Shown: piece after piece, positions 19,794-27,404 of the stretch
Numbering within the stretch: position 1 is the stretch's first letter
How the letters are laid out: every line of letters starts with the position of its first letter
DNA from: a virus
Length of the DNA: 30,131 nucleotides
Reading direction: 5' to 3' (one strand)
Virus genome (UHGV): UHGV-0095463
Program-made: the position numbers and the translations under genes
Notes under the pieces: model-generated
Seen by the model: only the letters and a program-made list of their open reading frames with translations
Told to the model about the DNA's origin: nothing
The model's database searches: none

Positions 19794-21560
19794 ATGAACA
19801 CCACACTGACACCCGCAGATCTCGATCCCCGTCGGCAGGCCATGCTGCTGTACTTTCAGGGATACCGCGTAGCCCGCATTGCTGAAATGCTGGGCGAGAA
19901 AGTTGCAACCGTTCACAGCTGGAAGAAACGCGACAAGTGGGGTGACTATGGGCCGCTGGATCAGATGCAGCTCACCACCGCCGCACGCTACTGCCAGCTC
20001 ATTATGAAGGAGCACAAAGAAGGGAAAGATTTCAAAGAAATTGACCTGCTGGCGCGCCAGTCGGAGCGCCACGCGCGGATCGGCAAGTTTAACAATGGCG
20101 GTAACGAAGCCGACTTAAACCCTAACGTCGCCAACCGCAACAAAGGCCCACGCCGTCAGCCGGAAAAGAATGTTTTCACCGATGAGCAGATTGAGAAGCT
20201 GGAAGAAATCTTCCATTCCTCCATGTTCAACTACCAGCGCCACTGGTGGGAAGCCGGAAAAACCAACCGCATCCGCAACCTGCTGAAGTCTCGCCAGATC
20301 GGCGCAACCTTCTATTTTGCCCGTGAAGCCCTGATTGACGCCCTGCTTACCGGACGTAACCAGATTTTCCTTTCTGCCAGTAAGGCTCAGGCCCACGTCT
20401 TTAAACAATACATCATCGACTTCGCCAAAGAAGTCGAGGTGGAGCTAAAAGGCGATCCGATGGTGCTTCCTAACGGAGCCACGCTTTACTTCCTCGGCAC
20501 CAATGCCCGCACGGCCCAGAGTTACCACGGCAACCTGTATCTGGATGAATATTTCTGGATACCGAAATTTCAGGAGCTGCGCAAAGTGGCTTCCGGTATG
20601 GCTATTCACAAGAAATGGCGACAAACCTATTTTTCCACGCCATCCAGCCTGACACACAGTGCTTATCCGTTCTGGTCCGGTGCGCTGTTCAACCGTGGGC
20701 GCAACAAAGCCGATAAGGTGGACATCGACCTGTCCCACAGCAATCTGGCCCCCGGCCTGCTGTGCGCAGACGGGCAATACCGCCAGATAGTCACCGTGGA
20801 AGATGCGGTGCGCGGCGGCTGTAACCTGTTCGACCTTGACCAGTTGCGCATGGAGTACAGCCCGGACGAATACCAGAACCTGCTGATGTGCGAGTTTGTG
20901 GACGATCTCGCGTCCGTGTTTCCGCTCAGCGAGCTGCAGGCGTGCATGGTGGACAGCTGGGAAGTCTGGACCGACTTTCATGCACTGGCGCTGCGCCCGT
21001 TTGGCTGGCGCGAGGTGTGGATCGGTTATGACCCGGCAAAAGGTACGCAGAACGGCGATAGTGCCGGATGCGTGGTGGTGGCTCCGCCAGCCGTGCCGGG
21101 TGGTAAGTTCCGCATTCTTGAGCATCACCAGTGGCGCGGGATGGACTTCCGCGCCCAGGCTGACGCCATCAAAAAACTGACCGAACAGTACAACGTGACC
21201 TATATCGGCATCGACTCGACCGGCGTCGGTCACGGGGTTTACGAGAACGTGAAAGCGTTTTTTCCTGCCGTCAGGGAGTTTGTCTACAACCCCAACGTTA
21301 AAAACGCCCTGGTACTCAAGGCCTACGACATTATCAGCCACCGCCGTCTGGAGTTTGACGCCGGGCACACCGACATTGCGCAGTCATTTATGGCAATCCG
21401 TCGCGCTACCACTGCCAGTGGCAACCGCCCGACCTATGAAGCCAGCCGCAGCGAAGAAGCCAGCCATGCCGATCTGGCCTGGGCAACAATGCACGCACTG
21501 TTTAACGAACCGCTGCAGGGCGAGTCCGCCAATACCAGCAATATTGTGGAGATTTTTTGA
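19794..21560 (+). CDS. P: Terminase large (ATPase) subunit gpP
   Basis: 588-aa ORF divergent from O and followed by the portal gene, as in P2. Confidence 0.9.
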   Translation: MNTTLTPADLDPRRQAMLLYFQGYRVARIAEMLGEKVATVHSWKKRDKWGDYGPLDQMQLTTAARYCQLIMKEHKEGKDFKEIDLLARQSERHARIGKFNNGGNEADLNPNVANRNKGPRRQPEKNVFTDEQIEKLEEIFHSSMFNYQRHWWEAGKTNRIRNLLKSRQIGATFYFAREALIDALLTGRNQIFLSASKAQAHVFKQYIIDFAKEVEVELKGDPMVLPNGATLYFLGTNARTAQSYHGNLYLDEYFWIPKFQELRKVASGMAIHKKWRQTYFSTPSSLTHSAYPFWSGALFNRGRNKADKVDIDLSHSNLAPGLLCADGQYRQIVTVEDAVRGGCNLFDLDQLRMEYSPDEYQNLLMCEFVDDLASVFPLSELQACMVDSWEVWTDFHALALRPFGWREVWIGYDPAKGTQNGDSAGCVVVAPPAVPGGKFRILEHHQWRGMDFRAQADAIKKLTEQYNVTYIGIDSTGVGHGVYENVKAFFPAVREFVYNPNVKNALVLKAYDIISHRRLEFDAGHTDIAQSFMAIRRATTASGNRPTYEASRSEEASHADLAWATMHALFNEPLQGESANTSNIVEIF

Positions 21561-22597
21561 TGGGAAAGAGTAAGAAGAACCGCGCTGCGTCGACGAAACA
21601 GATCCAGCATAAAAGCCAGACTTCAGCCGAAGCATTCAGCTTCGGTGATCCCGTTCCTGTTCTGGACCGCCGCGAACTGCTGGACTATGTGGAATGCGTA
21701 CAGATGGATCGTTGGTATGAGCCGCCTGTGAGTTTCGACGGACTGGCGCGAACCTTCCGCGCCGCCGTGCATCACAGCTCACCGATTGCAGTGAAGTGCA
21801 ACATTCTGACCAGCACCTACATCCCTCACCCGCTGCTCAGCCAGCAGGCTTTTTCGCGTTTTGTGCAGGACTATCTGGTTTTTGGTAACGCCTACCTGGA
21901 GAAACGCACGAACCGCTTCGGTGAAGTTATCGCCCTTGAGCCTGCACTGGCAAAATACACCCGACGCGGGTTAGACCTGGATACCTACTGGTTTGTGCAA
22001 TACGGTATGACAACCCAGCCGTATCAGTTCACGAAAGGCAGCATTTTTCATCTGATGGAACCGGACATTAACCAGGAGATCTACGGCCTGCCCGGTTATC
22101 TTTCTGCCATTCCGTCAGCTCTGCTCAACGAGTCCGCCACGCTGTTCCGCCGCAAGTATTACATTAACGGCAGTCATGCAGGCTTCATCATGTACATGAC
22201 CGATGCTGCGCAGAACCAGGAGGATGTGAACAACCTCCGCAATGCGATGAAAAGCGCCAAAGGTCCTGGTAACTTCCGTAACCTGTTTATGTACTCGCCT
22301 AACGGTAAAAAGGACGGGCTTCAGATTATCCCGTTGTCAGAAGTGGCGGCGAAGGATGAGTTCCTGAATATCAAGAACGTGAGCCGGGACGACATGATGG
22401 CGGCGCATCGTGTGCCGCCACAAATGATGGGGATAATGCCTAATAATGTCGGGGGGTTTGGGGATGTGGAGAAGGCTAGTCGAGTGTTTGTCCGCAATGA
22501 ACTGATGCCACTGCAAAAGCGGCTGCAAGAGCTGAACAACTGGCTAGGTGAAAAAGTGATTTGCTTTGAATCTTACAACTTAGATATTTCTGAGTAA
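21557..22597 (+). CDS. Q: Portal protein gpQ
   Basis: 346-aa ORF, the last late gene before cos. The ORF-track start is a TTG at 21557; the first ATG is at 21560. Confidence 0.9.
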   Translation: MMGKSKKNRAASTKQIQHKSQTSAEAFSFGDPVPVLDRRELLDYVECVQMDRWYEPPVSFDGLARTFRAAVHHSSPIAVKCNILTSTYIPHPLLSQQAFSRFVQDYLVFGNAYLEKRTNRFGEVIALEPALAKYTRRGLDLDTYWFVQYGMTTQPYQFTKGSIFHLMEPDINQEIYGLPGYLSAIPSALLNESATLFRRKYYINGSHAGFIMYMTDAAQNQEDVNNLRNAMKSAKGPGNFRNLFMYSPNGKKDGLQIIPLSEVAAKDEFLNIKNVSRDDMMAAHRVPPQMMGIMPNNVGGFGDVEKASRVFVRNELMPLQKRLQELNNWLGEKVICFESYNLDISE

Positions 22598-22605
22598 ATT
22601 AAAGC

Positions 22606-22621
22606 GCCTGCATTTGCAGGC
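22606..22621. terminator. Rho-independent terminator after Q
   Basis: Hairpin GCCTGC-attt-GCAGGC followed by ATTCTATTATTCTTT. Confidence 0.5.
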
Positions 22622-22627
22622 ATTCTA

Positions 22628-22924
22628 TTATTCTTTAATTAGTGCCCCCCATACGGAGTCCATATCAACTTCCTCAACTACAATGCAAATGGAGCAATGA
22701 ACATGACCATCAGCAATGCGTAGGTAATTGAAAAGCCTTGTTTTCACCCGCCCATCAAATTGAGCACGCCCACCCTTATTCGTAATTGTTACGTAGTCTC
22801 CCACATTTGGAAGCATCAAAAGCGAGTTGTCTTCTGAATTACACCCTACAACCTCTCCATCATCATCAGGGCGATCCTGACCTTTGCGCATATATTGAAA
22901 ATCATAGCTATAAGTAGTTTTCAT
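22628..22924 (-). CDS. Hypothetical 98-aa protein between the portal gene and cos
   Basis: AT-rich ORF. No convincing Shine-Dalgarno upstream and no recognisable motif (translation ...GDYVTITNKGGRAQFDGRVKTRLFNYLRIADGHVHCSICIVVEEVD...). Confidence 0.4.
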   Translation of the reverse strand: MKTTYSYDFQYMRKGQDRPDDDGEVVGCNSEDNSLLMLPNVGDYVTITNKGGRAQFDGRVKTRLFNYLRIADGHVHCSICIVVEEVDMDSVWGALIKE

Positions 22925-23129
22925 AAATGTCTTACTATTCCAATTTTTAACTAACCCAGAAGTTATATCTTAGACCTAAACTGTCTCAGTCACCGTTAAC
23001 TTCATCACAACGATTTAACACATCCTGCATGCCTATCTAACGTGAGAGCCGTTTATACCTACAAAACTAACTACGTTCCTGAGCCAGTAAATTGCGGTGG
23101 ATTTTGACCATTTTACCCCAGAGTGCGCG

Positions 23130-23148
23130 CTCGTATCCCCGCCACGCC
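23130..23148. other. cos-like site (cohesive-end region)
   Basis: Minus strand reads GGCGTGGCGGGGATACGAG. The first 13 nt match the 19-nt cohesive end I recall for phage 186 (GGCGTGGCGGGGAAAGCAT; P2 is GGCGAGGCGGGGAAAGCAC). Location after Q is as expected. Confidence 0.45.
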
Positions 23149-23196
23149 TGCCCGCTTTATGTAGTGGTTTTCATGCGCCTGCATGACATAAGCAAA

Positions 23197-23218
23197 GGCC
23201 CGCCATTCCTAGCGGGCC
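23197..23218 (-). terminator. Putative rho-independent terminator downstream of the 290-aa cargo gene
   Basis: Hairpin GGCCCGC-cattccta-GCGGGCC. On the minus strand it is followed by TTTGCTTAT. Confidence 0.45.
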
Positions 23219-23240
23219 TCAGCTAAAACGATCCTCAAAC

Positions 23241-23273
23241 GATCATGCGGATTCATGCGGCATAGTCATGCAC
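23241..23273. repeat. Three tandem 10-bp-periodic repeats (ATCATGCGG / ATTCATGCGG / AGTCATGCAC) next to cos
   Basis: Direct repeats of core TCATGC(G/A) at one-helical-turn spacing, with a fourth copy at about 23171-23177. Candidate terminase (cosB-like) or other protein-binding array. Confidence 0.4.
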
Positions 23274-23320
23274 TTGTGTGGTTACGAAGGAATATAGTTG
23301 CGAAAATCGATTAAAATGTC

Positions 23321-24193
23321 TTAAGCTCTCTTAATCAACCCCTTATGCGTTGCTTTGGTAAGATAAGCTAATTCTTTAGGCCCCTTATCTCTAAAGCCCA
23401 CCCATTCTGGTTGGAATTTTATAAAACTTGGAATTGCGGTTGCCAAGGCTGTAACCATACCGGGAATAATACCGCCTGAATAACCAGCAATAGCAGCATG
23501 GTACAACGGTTTTAAAAATTCCATAACCTGCCCACCATCTACTTCTGGATTGGCTTTGACTCCCATTCTGATAGGATTTCTCCATTTCCCTTCGATAGCT
23601 TTATCAAGATTAACTACAGCCTCTTGTAATAAAGAAAAATTTTTAGCCCTCGTTAGATTAGGGTCTCTAGAATAAAGGACTTCAGTATACAGTTTTTCTA
23701 AGTACTCATGTAACGCATTAAGATCATCCTGACAATCATCTTTAAAACGTAATATATCTTCTATATGAGCATCTTTATCAGGAATTCTCAGAACATTAAA
23801 CAACTCCAATCTCAACTGAAGGGCCGTTTTCTGTGCTTTATCATATATTAAATTTTCCCCTGTTTGATGAAAGTGCCAATAAGTAGCAGGCTCGTTCTTC
23901 CTGAATTCATCCAATGTCTGCAACTGAAATTCCGTATATAAAAATGGAAAGTCTTGGATATTCAGCATCCCATCATGTTTCATAATAGGTCTACGTAATA
24001 CCCCATTATCTAATAATTCTTTTTCTTTAGGCACAATCGAGTGAATATTTTCACTATCTAGAATAACCACATCATCCCAGTAAAAGCAGAAATAATTAAT
24101 ATCCTGCTCAGTTAAACCTGCCCCAAGATAGACCGTACTATTATTTCTATGAAAACTCATTTCATTAGGATTAGCTACAATACCACGTTTCAT
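23321..24193 (-). CDS. Unrecognised AT-rich cargo protein (290 aa), a candidate anti-phage / abortive-infection gene
   Basis: ATG at 24193 with AAGGAG 5 nt upstream (the ORF-track start at 24217 has no ribosome-binding site). Strongly AT-rich relative to the flanking phage genes, with AT-rich intergenic regions on both sides and a terminator hairpin downstream. C-terminal Gly/Ala-rich hydrophobic segment LYHAAIAGYSGGIIPGMVTALATAIPSFI. Sits between the tum-like module and cos, the position of the P2 old/tin cargo locus. Confidence 0.7.
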   Translation of the reverse strand: MKRGIVANPNEMSFHRNNSTVYLGAGLTEQDINYFCFYWDDVVILDSENIHSIVPKEKELLDNGVLRRPIMKHDGMLNIQDFPFLYTEFQLQTLDEFRKNEPATYWHFHQTGENLIYDKAQKTALQLRLELFNVLRIPDKDAHIEDILRFKDDCQDDLNALHEYLEKLYTEVLYSRDPNLTRAKNFSLLQEAVVNLDKAIEGKWRNPIRMGVKANPEVDGGQVMEFLKPLYHAAIAGYSGGIIPGMVTALATAIPSFIKFQPEWVGFRDKGPKELAYLTKATHKGLIKRA

Positions 24194-24404
24194 TCTTGCT
24201 CCTTGATAAGCATACACATTTTAAGAATGACATATATTCTAATAATTTCAATACATTATGAGTTATAACTAAAAGTGCAGCATAGGTCTCGCCCTGATAG
24301 ATAATCAAGTGATTACTGTCTTTTTACTTATGGTTAACGCCTCTCAAGGCTCGCGGTTCAACCTTGCTGACGCCAGAAGCAGGTTCAGACGCCAGCAACG
24401 TTTC

Positions 24405-24638
24405 TTAATGCAGCCAGCTGTCGTCTTCCCACACCTTCTGCATAATTTTCATCACTTGTTTTCTTTCTTCGTCCAGTTGCAATCCGGTAAGTTCCACACC
24501 GTTAGAGCTACCTTTGCGGATACGAATTACCGTTTTGGGATACAGGGGGCGCAGATTGCGGTAAAGCTCGGATTCAAGGGCGTCCAGTGTAGACTGGCTA
24601 ATCTTCTGCTCTTTATCGATCATTATTTCAATGCGCAT
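24405..24638 (-). CDS. DinI-like protein (77 aa)
   Basis: From the internal start MRIEIMIDKEQ... the protein ends ...QKVWEDDSWLH, resembling E. coli DinI (MRIEVTIAK...ETWESADDWF, about 80 aa). GAGGTGA Shine-Dalgarno upstream of ATG 24638. Confidence 0.75.
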   Translation of the reverse strand: MRIEIMIDKEQKISQSTLDALESELYRNLRPLYPKTVIRIRKGSSNGVELTGLQLDEERKQVMKIMQKVWEDDSWLH

Positions 24639-24648
24639 AAAAGTCACC

Positions 24649-24837
24649 TCAGCTGATGACATCCATTGAGCGGTTGTATTCGTGGGTTCTGATTTTTGCC
24701 ATGAGTTCATCTGTCAGTTCAGAAACCCACTGCAGAGCCAGCCCCTTCTCTTCATCACTACACTCACTAGCCGCTACAAGCTTAAGAAAAAAATCAATGC
24801 GCTGGAGCTTCAAAGACTCCAAAAAATAGTCCTGCAT
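24649..24837 (-). CDS. Small hypothetical protein (62 aa), possibly the N-terminal module of a Tum-like antirepressor
   Basis: Strong ribosome-binding site (AGGAGG, 4 nt spacer). Lies immediately downstream of a LexA box and immediately upstream of the DinI-like ORF in a different frame. Confidence 0.55.
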   Translation of the reverse strand: MQDYFLESLKLQRIDFFLKLVAASECSDEEKGLALQWVSELTDELMAKIRTHEYNRSMDVIS

Positions 24838-24877
24838 CTTTCCTCCTATGACACCAAAACAATACTGTATACATAAC

Positions 24878-24897
24878 CACTGTTTATATTTACAGTA
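24878..24897. promoter_or_regulatory. LexA operator (SOS box) upstream of the tum-like/DinI-like genes
   Basis: CACTGTTTATATTTACAGTA matches the CTGT-N8-ACAG consensus (TACTGTATATATATACAGTA), about 40 bp upstream of the 62-aa ORF start. A partial box (TACTGTATAC) lies just beside it. Confidence 0.7.
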
Positions 24898-24989
24898 TAT
24901 AATAATCTTACTGATGTAAAACGTTTTTTTACGTTCATCGGCCTGATATGCCTGGTATTATTAAGAGCACGAATTGTTAACCCGCGTAA

Positions 24990-27404
24990 TTAATACAGGT
25001 TCCGCCACTTATCATCTTCCTTCAGACGCTGGTTCCGATAGAAGATACGCAGGCCAGCTCCTGACGGAATACTGCCGCCGCGAAGGAGCAAATCGACTTC
25101 TTTCTCGCTGCCATCAAATCCCCTGGACTTCAGTTCATAGACGAGCTGCTGTCGCTGATGGTCTGTAATTCGCTGTTTGTAGTCTTTACGCCGTTTCGGT
25201 TTCACCTGGCGTAACCTTGCAGCCAGTTCCCGGCGCTCTTTTTTGCTCATACTGTGCAGGTAATCGTGCAACTCCTTGTCATTCATACGGGTAATATCCG
25301 TTCTGGAGTCCCCATCAGCTGATTTGTCTTTCCCTTGTTGGTTCAAATTTTCAGCAAGGGGACAGTTATTGCCACGAGTCCAAGGGGCGCAAGCGCCCTG
25401 GTCGGCTGCCGCCTCCTGAACGTCAACGGCTTTACGAACCATTTTCCACTTCACTGCATGAGTGCAGATCTTGCCCTCTGCAATGGGTGACCAGATGCCA
25501 TAAATACGAATGCCGTGATCGCCATAGGCGGTCGGCTCTTCGTTGATTTCATAAGCGGTTCTGATGAGGTGATATTTACGGGGAACCAGTACGCCGCCCT
25601 GCTTCATGATGTAGGTGGCAAAACAACCAGCATCAGCAGCAGCCAGAATGGCATCAAGACGCGGGTTATCCAGTACCGGCGCACCTGCATTTTTGTCCCC
25701 CTGTTGCCTTGCCGCCTGACCAGCCAACAATCGCAGTTCACGGTAAGCCTGACGCCCCGGAATGCCAAAGAAGCGGAATTGCTGAACACGATGCAAAGAC
25801 GCCCAGGCATTCACGTATTCAGCGTTATCACGCAGAGATTTACCCGTTTCCTTGCTGATCTCGCCAGCCAGACCACGACCGTCAATGTTCTTACTGATAT
25901 ATTTCGCGATGTAGCTTGTCGGCGTTCCTTTGCGCGGGTTAATCAACTCAGACTTAAAGCGCGGCCCAGTGTTATTGCCCAGCTCCTCGCGGTCTTCACG
26001 GATGGCAAACTTACGCAGTAATGCAGTGATGGCACGGCGGTCTTTTTTGCGCATGAAACACAACAGGTGCCAGTGAACTGTGCCATCATGATGCGGCTCA
26101 GCCACCCGCACGCCATACCAGCGCAACCCGGCTTTGTGCATCGCCTTACGAAATGCAGCAAACATGCCGACCAGATAATCGCTGCTTTGTCTTACCGTCG
26201 CGTTTGTCCAGGTCGGGTTTGGTCTGCCGTTATTTAGCGTGGAATGGAAACGCGACGGACAGGTGATAGTGTAGAAAACGGCGCAGTCACCGCGCATTTC
26301 CGCGATAAGCTCCAGACCTTTAACACAGGCCATCATCTCATTGCGGCGATGCGCAGGGTTGCTGCTGCTGGCGTTTACCACATCCTCCATGTCCAGCGTG
26401 TCGCCGTCTTCGTTCACCAGTTCATGAGAACGGAAAAACTCCAGCGACTTACGGCGCTGCTCACGTTTATGCATCACGGCTTCATAGCTGACATAAGGAG
26501 ATGCTTTTTTGCTGACCAGGCAAACAGCGCGCAACTGCTCTTCCCGCCATTCGCAACGCATCTTCCATAATTTCCGATACCACCAGTCGGCGCACAACAT
26601 ACGCGCCAGCGAACCCGGAATGAGTTCATAGGGCACGGGTTTACGGCGGTTTCTTTTCCGACGGAGTTGCTCAAACGCAGGTGGGATGACATCCAGACGC
26701 AGGGTTTCCGCTGCCACCTTTTCCCATGTCTTGCGGATTTCTTCTGGCTTAACGTCATCGGTGGCATACAAATCACCACAAGCTGCATCAAGGCACATAC
26801 TCATATGCGCAGCTACCAGGGTGGACAGGCGTTTCACCTGATCCTGACTCATTTCAGGCAGGATCAGCAGGCCGTCCAGCCCTTCATGGCTTGCCATAAA
26901 GCGAAAAGATGCAGATAGCTGACTGTCGCGTACATGCTCCAGTCGTTCCAGACATGGCTTAATCGTCTCACGTAAATAGCGGGAATAAGCCTTTGGCCTG
27001 CCCAGGCTGCTGAAGTATTCAATACGTTGCATCAGCGGCTTGCTGATATGGGAAGGCTGGGCGTTGACGTCCGCCAGAATGACCATGTCTGAATTAAAAC
27101 GCTGCTGCTCATGCGCCAGCTTTGCCCGGCTAATGAGCTTATCCTGCTCCATTTCGCGCTGGACAGGATCACGTGATTCATTAAAGAAATAACGCTCCCA
27201 GACCTGATCACTCAGTGCCTCGCGGCGCAACTGTTCCTGCTCGTTATCGGCAGCGTACAGAGTGATCAGGTTTGAAAGCGTAGAAACCGGCGCAACTTCC
27301 GCCGGGTCCAGATAAGGGTTAATGGCCTTTTTCGGGCTGTTCCATGAGAATGCTGCGGCAGCCTCGTTAAAGCCGCAGCAGTTGTTCATATCGGCATGAG
27401 TCAT
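24990..27404 (-). CDS. A: Rolling-circle replication initiator protein A
   Basis: 804-aa ORF containing ...[18 protein letters not shown]..., the tandem-tyrosine active-site motif of Rep endonucleases. Position and size match the P2/186 A gene. Confidence 0.9.

Follow-up and report, generated by a model that had tools for sequence, protein, structure and literature searches.

In P2-like phages, the interval between the replication gene A and the portal gene Q (gpA-gpQ) is a hotspot of cargo genes, in which P2 itself holds old and tin (Rousset et al., 2022). Exclusion activity has been demonstrated for old/tin, Old being an ATPase-Toprim nuclease. Among hotspot genes without a prior function, protection was observed for 3 of 8 P2 systems (Rousset et al., 2022) and for 6 of 8 P4 loci. 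About a quarter of the P2 hotspot loci hold non-defence cargo, e.g. partition systems (Rousset et al., 2022). Pseudogenes are described as rare in such hotspots in a published report.

Here we analyzed a window of 30,131 nucleotides, i.e. the whole stretch of DNA under study, which holds a gene of the Pfam family DUF6236. Like old/tin, this gene is an accessory, variable and prophage-borne gene of the gene A-to-cos/portal Q locus, and in Hafnia an Old-family gene adjoins a DUF6236 copy. However, there is no sequence relationship between them, the DUF6236 protein matches no PADLOC model, and exclusion is a candidate role for the DUF6236 gene whereas it is demonstrated for old/tin. A second point of comparison is Rst_DUF4238, which protects against T7 (Rousset et al., 2022) and is also a single DUF-only gene from the same hotspot and the same Table S5. 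The two genes belong to different Pfam families with no detectable similarity, and DUF4238 was validated, whereas DUF6236 appears in the catalogue table only. In this Table S5, DUF6236 is the P2-hotspot system #125, with 23 occurrences and the window sequence; its sequence and accession are restricted to the catalogue and absent from the table of tested systems (Rousset et al., 2022).

The DUF6236 gene also resembles lambdoid morons such as bor, lom and rexAB of lambda, which are low-GC single genes at operon boundaries near cos, dispensable and patchily distributed, but whose proteins are unrelated to DUF6236. Expression in the lysogen is documented for bor, lom and rexAB. With the CARF effectors of type III CRISPR signalling (Csm6, Can1/Can2, Cad1), the likeness is one of resemblance only, DUF6236 being devoid of a nuclease or deaminase effector domain. 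Furthermore, no cyclase or CRISPR neighbour of DUF6236 was found in any locus examined.

The family has also been scored by machine learning. In the DefensePredictor study (Science 2026), a mean log-odds of 8.32 and the label "predicted novel defense gene" were assigned to WP_053901735.1, whose locus is 99.8% identical to the window gene. In the same study, 94 candidates were cloned with their native promoter regions in MG1655 and challenged with 24 phages, and 42 of them protected; among the Table S6 rows consulted, 21 of 39 candidates with log-odds of 6.3-10.3 were validated. One randomly chosen candidate was a 289-aa E. coli DUF6236 protein, WP_097421955.1 (working id '6236', log-odds 8.56), the sole member of the family for which we found a test, and it was scored as defensive = FALSE against the 24 phages. 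According to the authors, negatives may stem from the phage panel, the expression or the host. This protein shares its Pfam family and its label of predicted novel defense gene with the window protein (8.56 vs 8.32). It is nevertheless a different protein; the window protein has its own cluster id in Table S10. In a full-text literature search, no paper text mentioned DUF6236 or PF19749, and the family was present in supplementary tables only. Two published candidate lists thus already include the gene, one as a catalogue entry and the other as a flagged prediction. To these lists, the present analysis adds the module boundaries (23275-24334), a structural outline, the conserved position of the gene, and neighbours that speak for or against defence.

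The window gene is a low-GC member of the DUF6236 family

The DUF6236-family coding sequence occupies positions 23321..24193 of the minus strand, from an ATG at 24193..24191 to a TAA at 23323..23321, and encodes 290 amino acids. The open reading frame listing gives a longer frame (23321..24217, minus strand) with a GTG start and 298 amino acids. Since all the homologues begin with M-[KE]-R-G in the alignment, we retained the ATG at 24193 as the true start. A Shine-Dalgarno sequence AAGGAG was read 5 nt upstream of this ATG (24204..24199, minus strand) and is kept in the homologous loci L079 and L077. The 290-aa frame and the AAGGAG site proposed in an earlier note on this DNA are therefore both borne out.

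The same note had described the gene as unrecognised and had been unable to assign its protein to a family by eye, which no longer holds with profile searches. The window protein matched Pfam DUF6236 (PF19749) over residues 35-281 (E = 3.8e-21, 76 bits against a cut-off of 26.2), and so did 84 of the 84 aligned relatives; it also matched PHROG 23128. It is identical to WP_053901735.1 at 289 of 290 positions, the single difference being A120 for E, and the near-identical protein is named DUF6236 family protein in RefSeq. No NCBIfam match was obtained for the window protein. With PADLOC-DB v2.0.0, we observed 0 families for the window protein at E up to 1 and single chance-level matches for the 84 relatives (best E = 0.0055). 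No known defence family is thus matched by the protein or its 84 relatives, a question that the earlier note had left to profile searches. A comparison of the sequence with PDB chains returned a chance match only, to a 31-residue stretch of SAMHD1 (E = 0.26).

As the note had also proposed, the gene is markedly richer in AT than the phage backbone. Its GC content is 36.3% compared to 52.7% for the whole window, and its GC3 is 29.2% compared to 57-70% for the backbone genes (gene A, 57.5%; terminase, 69.6%; portal, 63.4%). The neighbouring phage genes have a GC content of 52-56% and a GC3 of 58-70%, against 36.3% and 29% for the DUF6236 gene.

The gene is under purifying selection. We obtained a dN/dS of 0.13 in comparison with an 83%-identical copy, and of 0.13-0.16 at moderate divergence; the ratio climbs to 0.60 at low divergence (dS 0.10; window protein vs P0002, from locus L079). 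The amino acid changes between the window protein and P0002 are concentrated in the N-terminal beta-hairpin and the hydrophobic C-terminal segment (residues 10-30 and 223-250), and these two stretches may be specificity regions.

The gene is the sole gene of a cargo module in the cos-proximal hotspot

The element around the DUF6236 gene is a 186/P2-like E. coli prophage. The best phage match showed 96% identity over 90% of the first 25 kb of the window, and a near-identical E. coli locus runs on into Dam methylase, Fil, cII and CI. The terminase ATPase (19794-21560) and the portal (21557-22597) are encoded on the plus strand, and the replication endonuclease A (24990-27404) on the minus strand. 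The upstream context of the DUF6236 gene (24405..24895, minus strand) consists of a LexA box, a 62-aa ORF and a DinI-like/tum-like ORF. The LexA box is perfect, with 0 mismatches (CTGTTTATATTTACAG, 24880-24895, minus strand), and precedes the operon formed by the 62-aa ORF (24649-24837, minus strand, the strand of the DUF6236 gene) and the DinI-like/tum-like ORF (24405-24710, minus strand; DinI Pfam E = 1.3e-22). This is the arrangement of a 186-type SOS-inducible antirepressor. The LexA box overlaps a promoter-like TTACAT/TATACT pair.

The DUF6236 gene is located between gene A and the DinI/tum-like operon on one side and cos and the portal on the other. It adjoins cos in the gene-A-to-portal-Q position that serves as hotspot criterion in Rousset et al. 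(2022), so the earlier assignment to the cos-proximal P2 hotspot, the old/tin locus, holds. The idea that the gene is variable cargo was likewise supported by its distribution: of 5426 complete E. coli genomes, 22 contained the gene and about 1260 contained its flanks, around 98% of the related E. coli P2-like prophages lack it, and the site is empty in the otherwise similar prophage L009.

The cos of L009 abuts the DinI gene, and we set the limits of the module by blastn of the window against this prophage. Homology stops at 23274 and restarts at 24335, which delimits an insert of 1060 bp relative to the empty P2-like hotspot (23275-24334). Besides the DUF6236 gene, the module contains just the 46 bp that follow it and the 141 bp that precede it. 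In over 1200 E. coli genomes, the match is limited to the cos block (23122-23274). This conserved cos region (23125-23274) is kept in prophages with or without DUF6236 cargo. It contains a probable 19-nt cohesive-end sequence, which we putatively assign from the P2/186 cos sequences as GGCGTGGCGGGGATACGAG (23148..23130, minus strand).

A second cargo gene is present on the portal side of cos, a 98-aa ORF (22628-22924, minus strand; PHROG 12676; GC 41.8%) for which no match was found in Pfam, PADLOC or NCBIfam. The block that holds this ORF (22598-23124) was detected in just 2 of the 5426 complete E. coli genomes. We rejected a two-gene system of DUF6236 and the 98-aa ORF, the ORF accompanying 0 of the 22 E. 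coli copies and being restricted to 2 genomes. The earlier description of the DUF6236 gene as single-gene cargo thus agrees with both the empty-site comparison and the absence of co-occurrence. Directly after the portal gene and before this 98-aa ORF, we noted a bidirectional terminator-like hairpin (22605-22622). An Rfam scan of 22500-25100 gave no match.

Candidate transcription signals

A strong terminator-like hairpin followed by UUUGCUU is located downstream of the DUF6236 gene (23224..23191, minus strand; -25.6 kcal/mol, z = -4.99). Its stem is kept in L009, with changes in the loop and in stem bases. Because it is part of the cos block, whose conservation does not depend on the cargo, we assign this hairpin to the phage backbone rather than to the DUF6236 gene. 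The downstream hairpin described in the earlier note therefore exists, but it is not a terminator of the gene's own: it was the sole hairpin found downstream and it sits in the cos block. Terminator-like hairpins do follow the DUF6236 gene in some homologous loci. In the window, the cos-block hairpin probably stops any transcript heading toward cos.

Upstream of the gene, a strict sigma-70 consensus scan called no site. The leader contains a conserved block that may be a cargo-borne promoter (24218..24251, minus strand), composed of TTGAAA (24251..24246), a 16-nt spacer ending in TGT, CATTCT (24229..24224) and TAAAAT (24223..24218). This TTGAAA-N16-CATTCT/TAAAAT block is common to the window, L077 (83% amino acid identity) and L075 (72%), while the remaining leader has diverged, and as a sequence pattern it is consistent with a cargo-borne promoter. 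The terminator scan called none between the LexA-box 62-aa/DinI operon and the DUF6236 gene. Since this operon is on the same strand and no terminator was called between them, SOS-driven read-through into the DUF6236 gene would be possible.

A small upstream partner ORF was considered and rejected: the candidates encode 45 aa in the window and 42 aa in L079 and L080, and the peptides are unrelated. In this upstream region, the window and L079/L080 share just about 30 nt before the ATG.

Predicted structure of the DUF6236 protein

We built an AlphaFold2 model of the window protein with an 84-sequence alignment. Residues 1-205 were well modelled, whereas the C-terminal 85 residues (206-290) had a pLDDT below 50; the N-domain modelled by itself reached a pLDDT of 84.5. 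In the prediction, a Rossmann-like N-domain of generic type is followed by a helical core that is conserved and by a Gly/Ala-rich, moderately hydrophobic C-terminus of low model quality. For the window protein, the structural match scores did not separate CARF from other Rossmann-like folds. Across 136 representatives, the conserved positions were R3, G4, Y38-W39-D40, W106, LPxP 135-138, F150-K151, R154, Y169, D177 and Y277. Within the close clade, the 140-165 helix was the most conserved stretch, and residues 10-30 and 223-250 were the most variable.

The earlier note had seen in the Gly/Ala-rich C-terminal stretch a membrane-inserting or glycine-zipper helix. Using a Kyte-Doolittle 19-residue mean and the usual transmembrane cut-off of 1.6, we observed a maximum of 1.55 at residues 240-258 of the window protein, just below the cut-off. 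The hydrophobic stretch is thus present, and its position is constant family-wide, about 50 residues from the C-terminus, though its sequence diverges; as a membrane helix it is borderline. It reaches 1.6 in 34 of 84 close relatives and in 23% of the 136 wider representatives, without any shift in position. Across the family, the maximum has a median of 1.45-1.52, with 23-40% of the members reaching 1.6. The C-terminal region shows two short hydrophobic peaks and no single long helix, followed by a basic tail, and a regular GxxxGxxxG pattern was not seen in the window protein sequence. With such a two-peak sequence, the protein would more plausibly associate with the membrane peripherally or in a re-entrant manner than through a classical transmembrane helix. 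Both the membrane helix and the own terminator are therefore weaker arguments than they first looked.

Distribution and neighbours of DUF6236 genes

A profile search of 1.84 billion representatives returned 1005 DUF6236 clusters at E up to 1e-3, almost all of them standalone proteins of about 285 aa. The named members belong to Enterobacterales, Vibrio, Acinetobacter and Paenibacillus. Two distant members (P0155 and P0261) have an N-terminal SEC-C zinc-binding motif fused to the DUF6236 body, and the Acinetobacter chromosomal members are 425 aa long, with an N-terminal extension of about 130 aa without a Pfam match. A scan of genome contigs returned one locus.

Copies that are 58-87% identical occupy the same P2-like slot as in the window, after DinI and transcribed toward cos. 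Copies of about 30% identity belong to lambdoid prophages, where they separate the lysis cassette from the terminase; three terminase systems are represented (HNH with Terminase_4/TerL, Terminase_2/3 and Nu1/GpA). In an IMG/VR survey of 57 viral loci, the P2-type arrangement of the window was found in 4. Lysis genes upstream and/or a terminase downstream were found in 44 of the 57, the recognised neighbours all being on the DUF6236 strand, and 9 loci had no recognisable neighbour. One exception in this survey, L047, has an HNH-like match upstream of DUF6236. The packaging-end position is thus common to P2-like and to several lambdoid prophage types. The GC content of DUF6236 was below that of its flanks in 30 of 30 loci, by about 13 points (38.8% vs 51.8%). 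In L010, terminator-like hairpins are present on both sides of the gene. From the distribution, the GC content and the dN/dS, we therefore consider DUF6236 as a moron of low GC content that is conserved and functional, and that typically has no other gene between itself and the packaging site.

Other settings were also observed. In a Vibrio P2-related phage, DUF6236 is located at the end of the element, after the tail-fibre genes, and a copy of 87% identity, outside any recognisable prophage, has a resolvase and IS110 as neighbours. On a Hafnia alvei chromosome (L006, 9151-10836), an Old-family ATPase-Toprim gene (PADLOC Old E = 2e-19) adjoins DUF6236 in a decayed P2 remnant, of which only portal, Ogr and integrase fragments are left. 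On the Acinetobacter lwoffii plasmid pALWED1.3 (L082, 6934-8882), a HEPN gene is located 21 bp upstream of DUF6236 on the same strand. Its product is a RiboL-PSP/Abi_2 protein (PADLOC PD-T4-5 E = 7e-10, AbiD E = 2e-5). The same arrangement was found in A. indicus (NZ_CP094256.1), the Acinetobacter plasmids being of 16 kb, and HEPN and DUF6236 may form a two-gene unit there.

In several lambdoid prophages, DUF6236 is directly followed by a gene encoding about 485 aa, which gives a weak Glycos_transf_2 match and precedes HNH/terminase (L038, 10285-11742; L053, 9061-10518; L045, 9476-10939; L081, 6958-8415).

Possible roles of the DUF6236 gene

We favour, with a probability of about 0.4, the reading of the DUF6236 gene as a moron for phage exclusion or abortive infection, whose product may act at the membrane. 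The genomic context, the base composition, the selection, the defence neighbours and the published machine-learning score argue for it. Against it stand the negative test of one relative, the lack of homology to known systems and the late-operon orientation in lambdoid phages. This co-orientation with the late operon would be just as compatible with a role in lytic growth. A gene that benefits the phage in its own lytic development (counter-defence, host takeover, lysis timing or packaging) would be expressed on induction and not in the quiescent lysogen. The 44 of 57 viral loci in which the gene follows the lysis cassette and precedes the terminase on the late-gene strand agree with this, since late read-through would transcribe it there. 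The window gene is in turn downstream of and co-oriented with the LexA-box tum/DinI operon, from which no called terminator separates it, and the relative assayed as a defence gene was negative. We nevertheless consider a lytic role unlikely: the gene is dispensable, being absent from about 98% of the related E. coli P2-like prophages, and the lysis genes of P2-like phages are distant from it. Its own AT-rich leader of 140-290 bp and the flanking hairpins in L010 correspond to a moron architecture and not to operon membership, and the 87%-identical copy is found outside any recognisable prophage.

Two further explanations were considered. One is a lysogenic-conversion enzyme, i.e. a membrane-associated Rossmann-like binder of nucleotides or nucleotide sugars that modifies the envelope or the metabolism, any effect on phages being indirect (receptor masking) or absent. 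The GT2-like gene of 485 aa after DUF6236 in several lambdoid prophages points in this direction, but the scores are generic and at the Rossmann level, with Foldseek probabilities of 0.06-0.10 for GtrB and mannose synthase. In addition, the alpha/beta domain has just about 136 residues, the conserved polar residues R3, D40, K151, R154 and D177 form no recognisable DXD or nucleotide-binding motif, and a Pfam glycosyltransferase match was found in 0 of 84 members, which makes such an enzyme improbable. The other is selfish or neutral cargo, either a toxin-like/addiction element or a passenger without benefit that is kept through hotspot turnover. It would account for the rarity of the copy (22 of 5426 genomes), the scattering of the family over prophages, small plasmids and IS/resolvase-flanked sites, and the lack of a phenotype in the one published test (WP_097421955.1). 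We regard it as improbable too, given the strong purifying selection and the constant length over about 1000 clusters (Enterobacterales, Vibrio, Acinetobacter, Paenibacillus). Moreover, no conserved antitoxin-like partner was found, the small upstream ORFs not being homologous between loci, and pseudogenes are reported as rare in these hotspots.

We explain the DUF6236 gene as a self-contained moron that was acquired horizontally and is carried by a 186/P2-like prophage in its cos-proximal gpA-gpQ hotspot. Under the phage-exclusion reading, it would encode a single-protein exclusion factor acting by abortive infection or superinfection exclusion, to the benefit of the lysogen or of the resident phage. 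The N-terminal Rossmann-like domain (1-136), with its hypervariable beta-hairpin 10-26, may bind a ligand or a phage-derived cue, and the conserved helical core (140-200) may couple sensing to action or mediate oligomerisation. The Gly/Ala-rich, moderately hydrophobic segment pair (226-259) and the basic amphipathic tail (260-290) would provide inner-membrane association, where the protein would perturb the membrane or block the entry of an incoming phage. Membrane action is the mode that we favour, though weakly supported. Expression would probably start from a promoter in the gene's own 141-bp AT-rich leader, with possible read-through from the LexA-controlled tum operon on induction.

A broader and more doubtful proposal, which we put forward tentatively, is that DUF6236 represents a new effector family, whose single-polypeptide members act against phages or by superinfection exclusion. 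Such a family would combine a Rossmann/CARF-like sensor with a membrane-associating C-terminus, would have been disseminated over at least four enterobacterial packaging lineages as the final gene ahead of cos/pac, and would be paired with an AbiD-like HEPN protein in Acinetobacter. If so, the published negative test would reflect limits of the phage panel or of expression. If the proteins are protective, about 1000 clusters (Enterobacterales, Vibrio, Acinetobacter, Firmicutes) that resemble no characterised system would be added to the defence repertoire, and protection would explain the steady position of the family at the packaging-site end of unrelated prophages.

Other cargo in related prophages

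Two P2-like prophages that also carry DUF6236 hold a cluster of three genes (285, 233 and 295 aa) between cos and portal (L074, 7237-9706; L073, 8392-10861). No Pfam or PADLOC match was found for this cluster, which may be another candidate hotspot system. In a further P2-like prophage (L072, 1-284), a SNIPE/T5orf172-domain gene adjoins the CI repressor, and because of this gene beside CI we consider the second hotspot of that prophage as filled by a defence-type gene.
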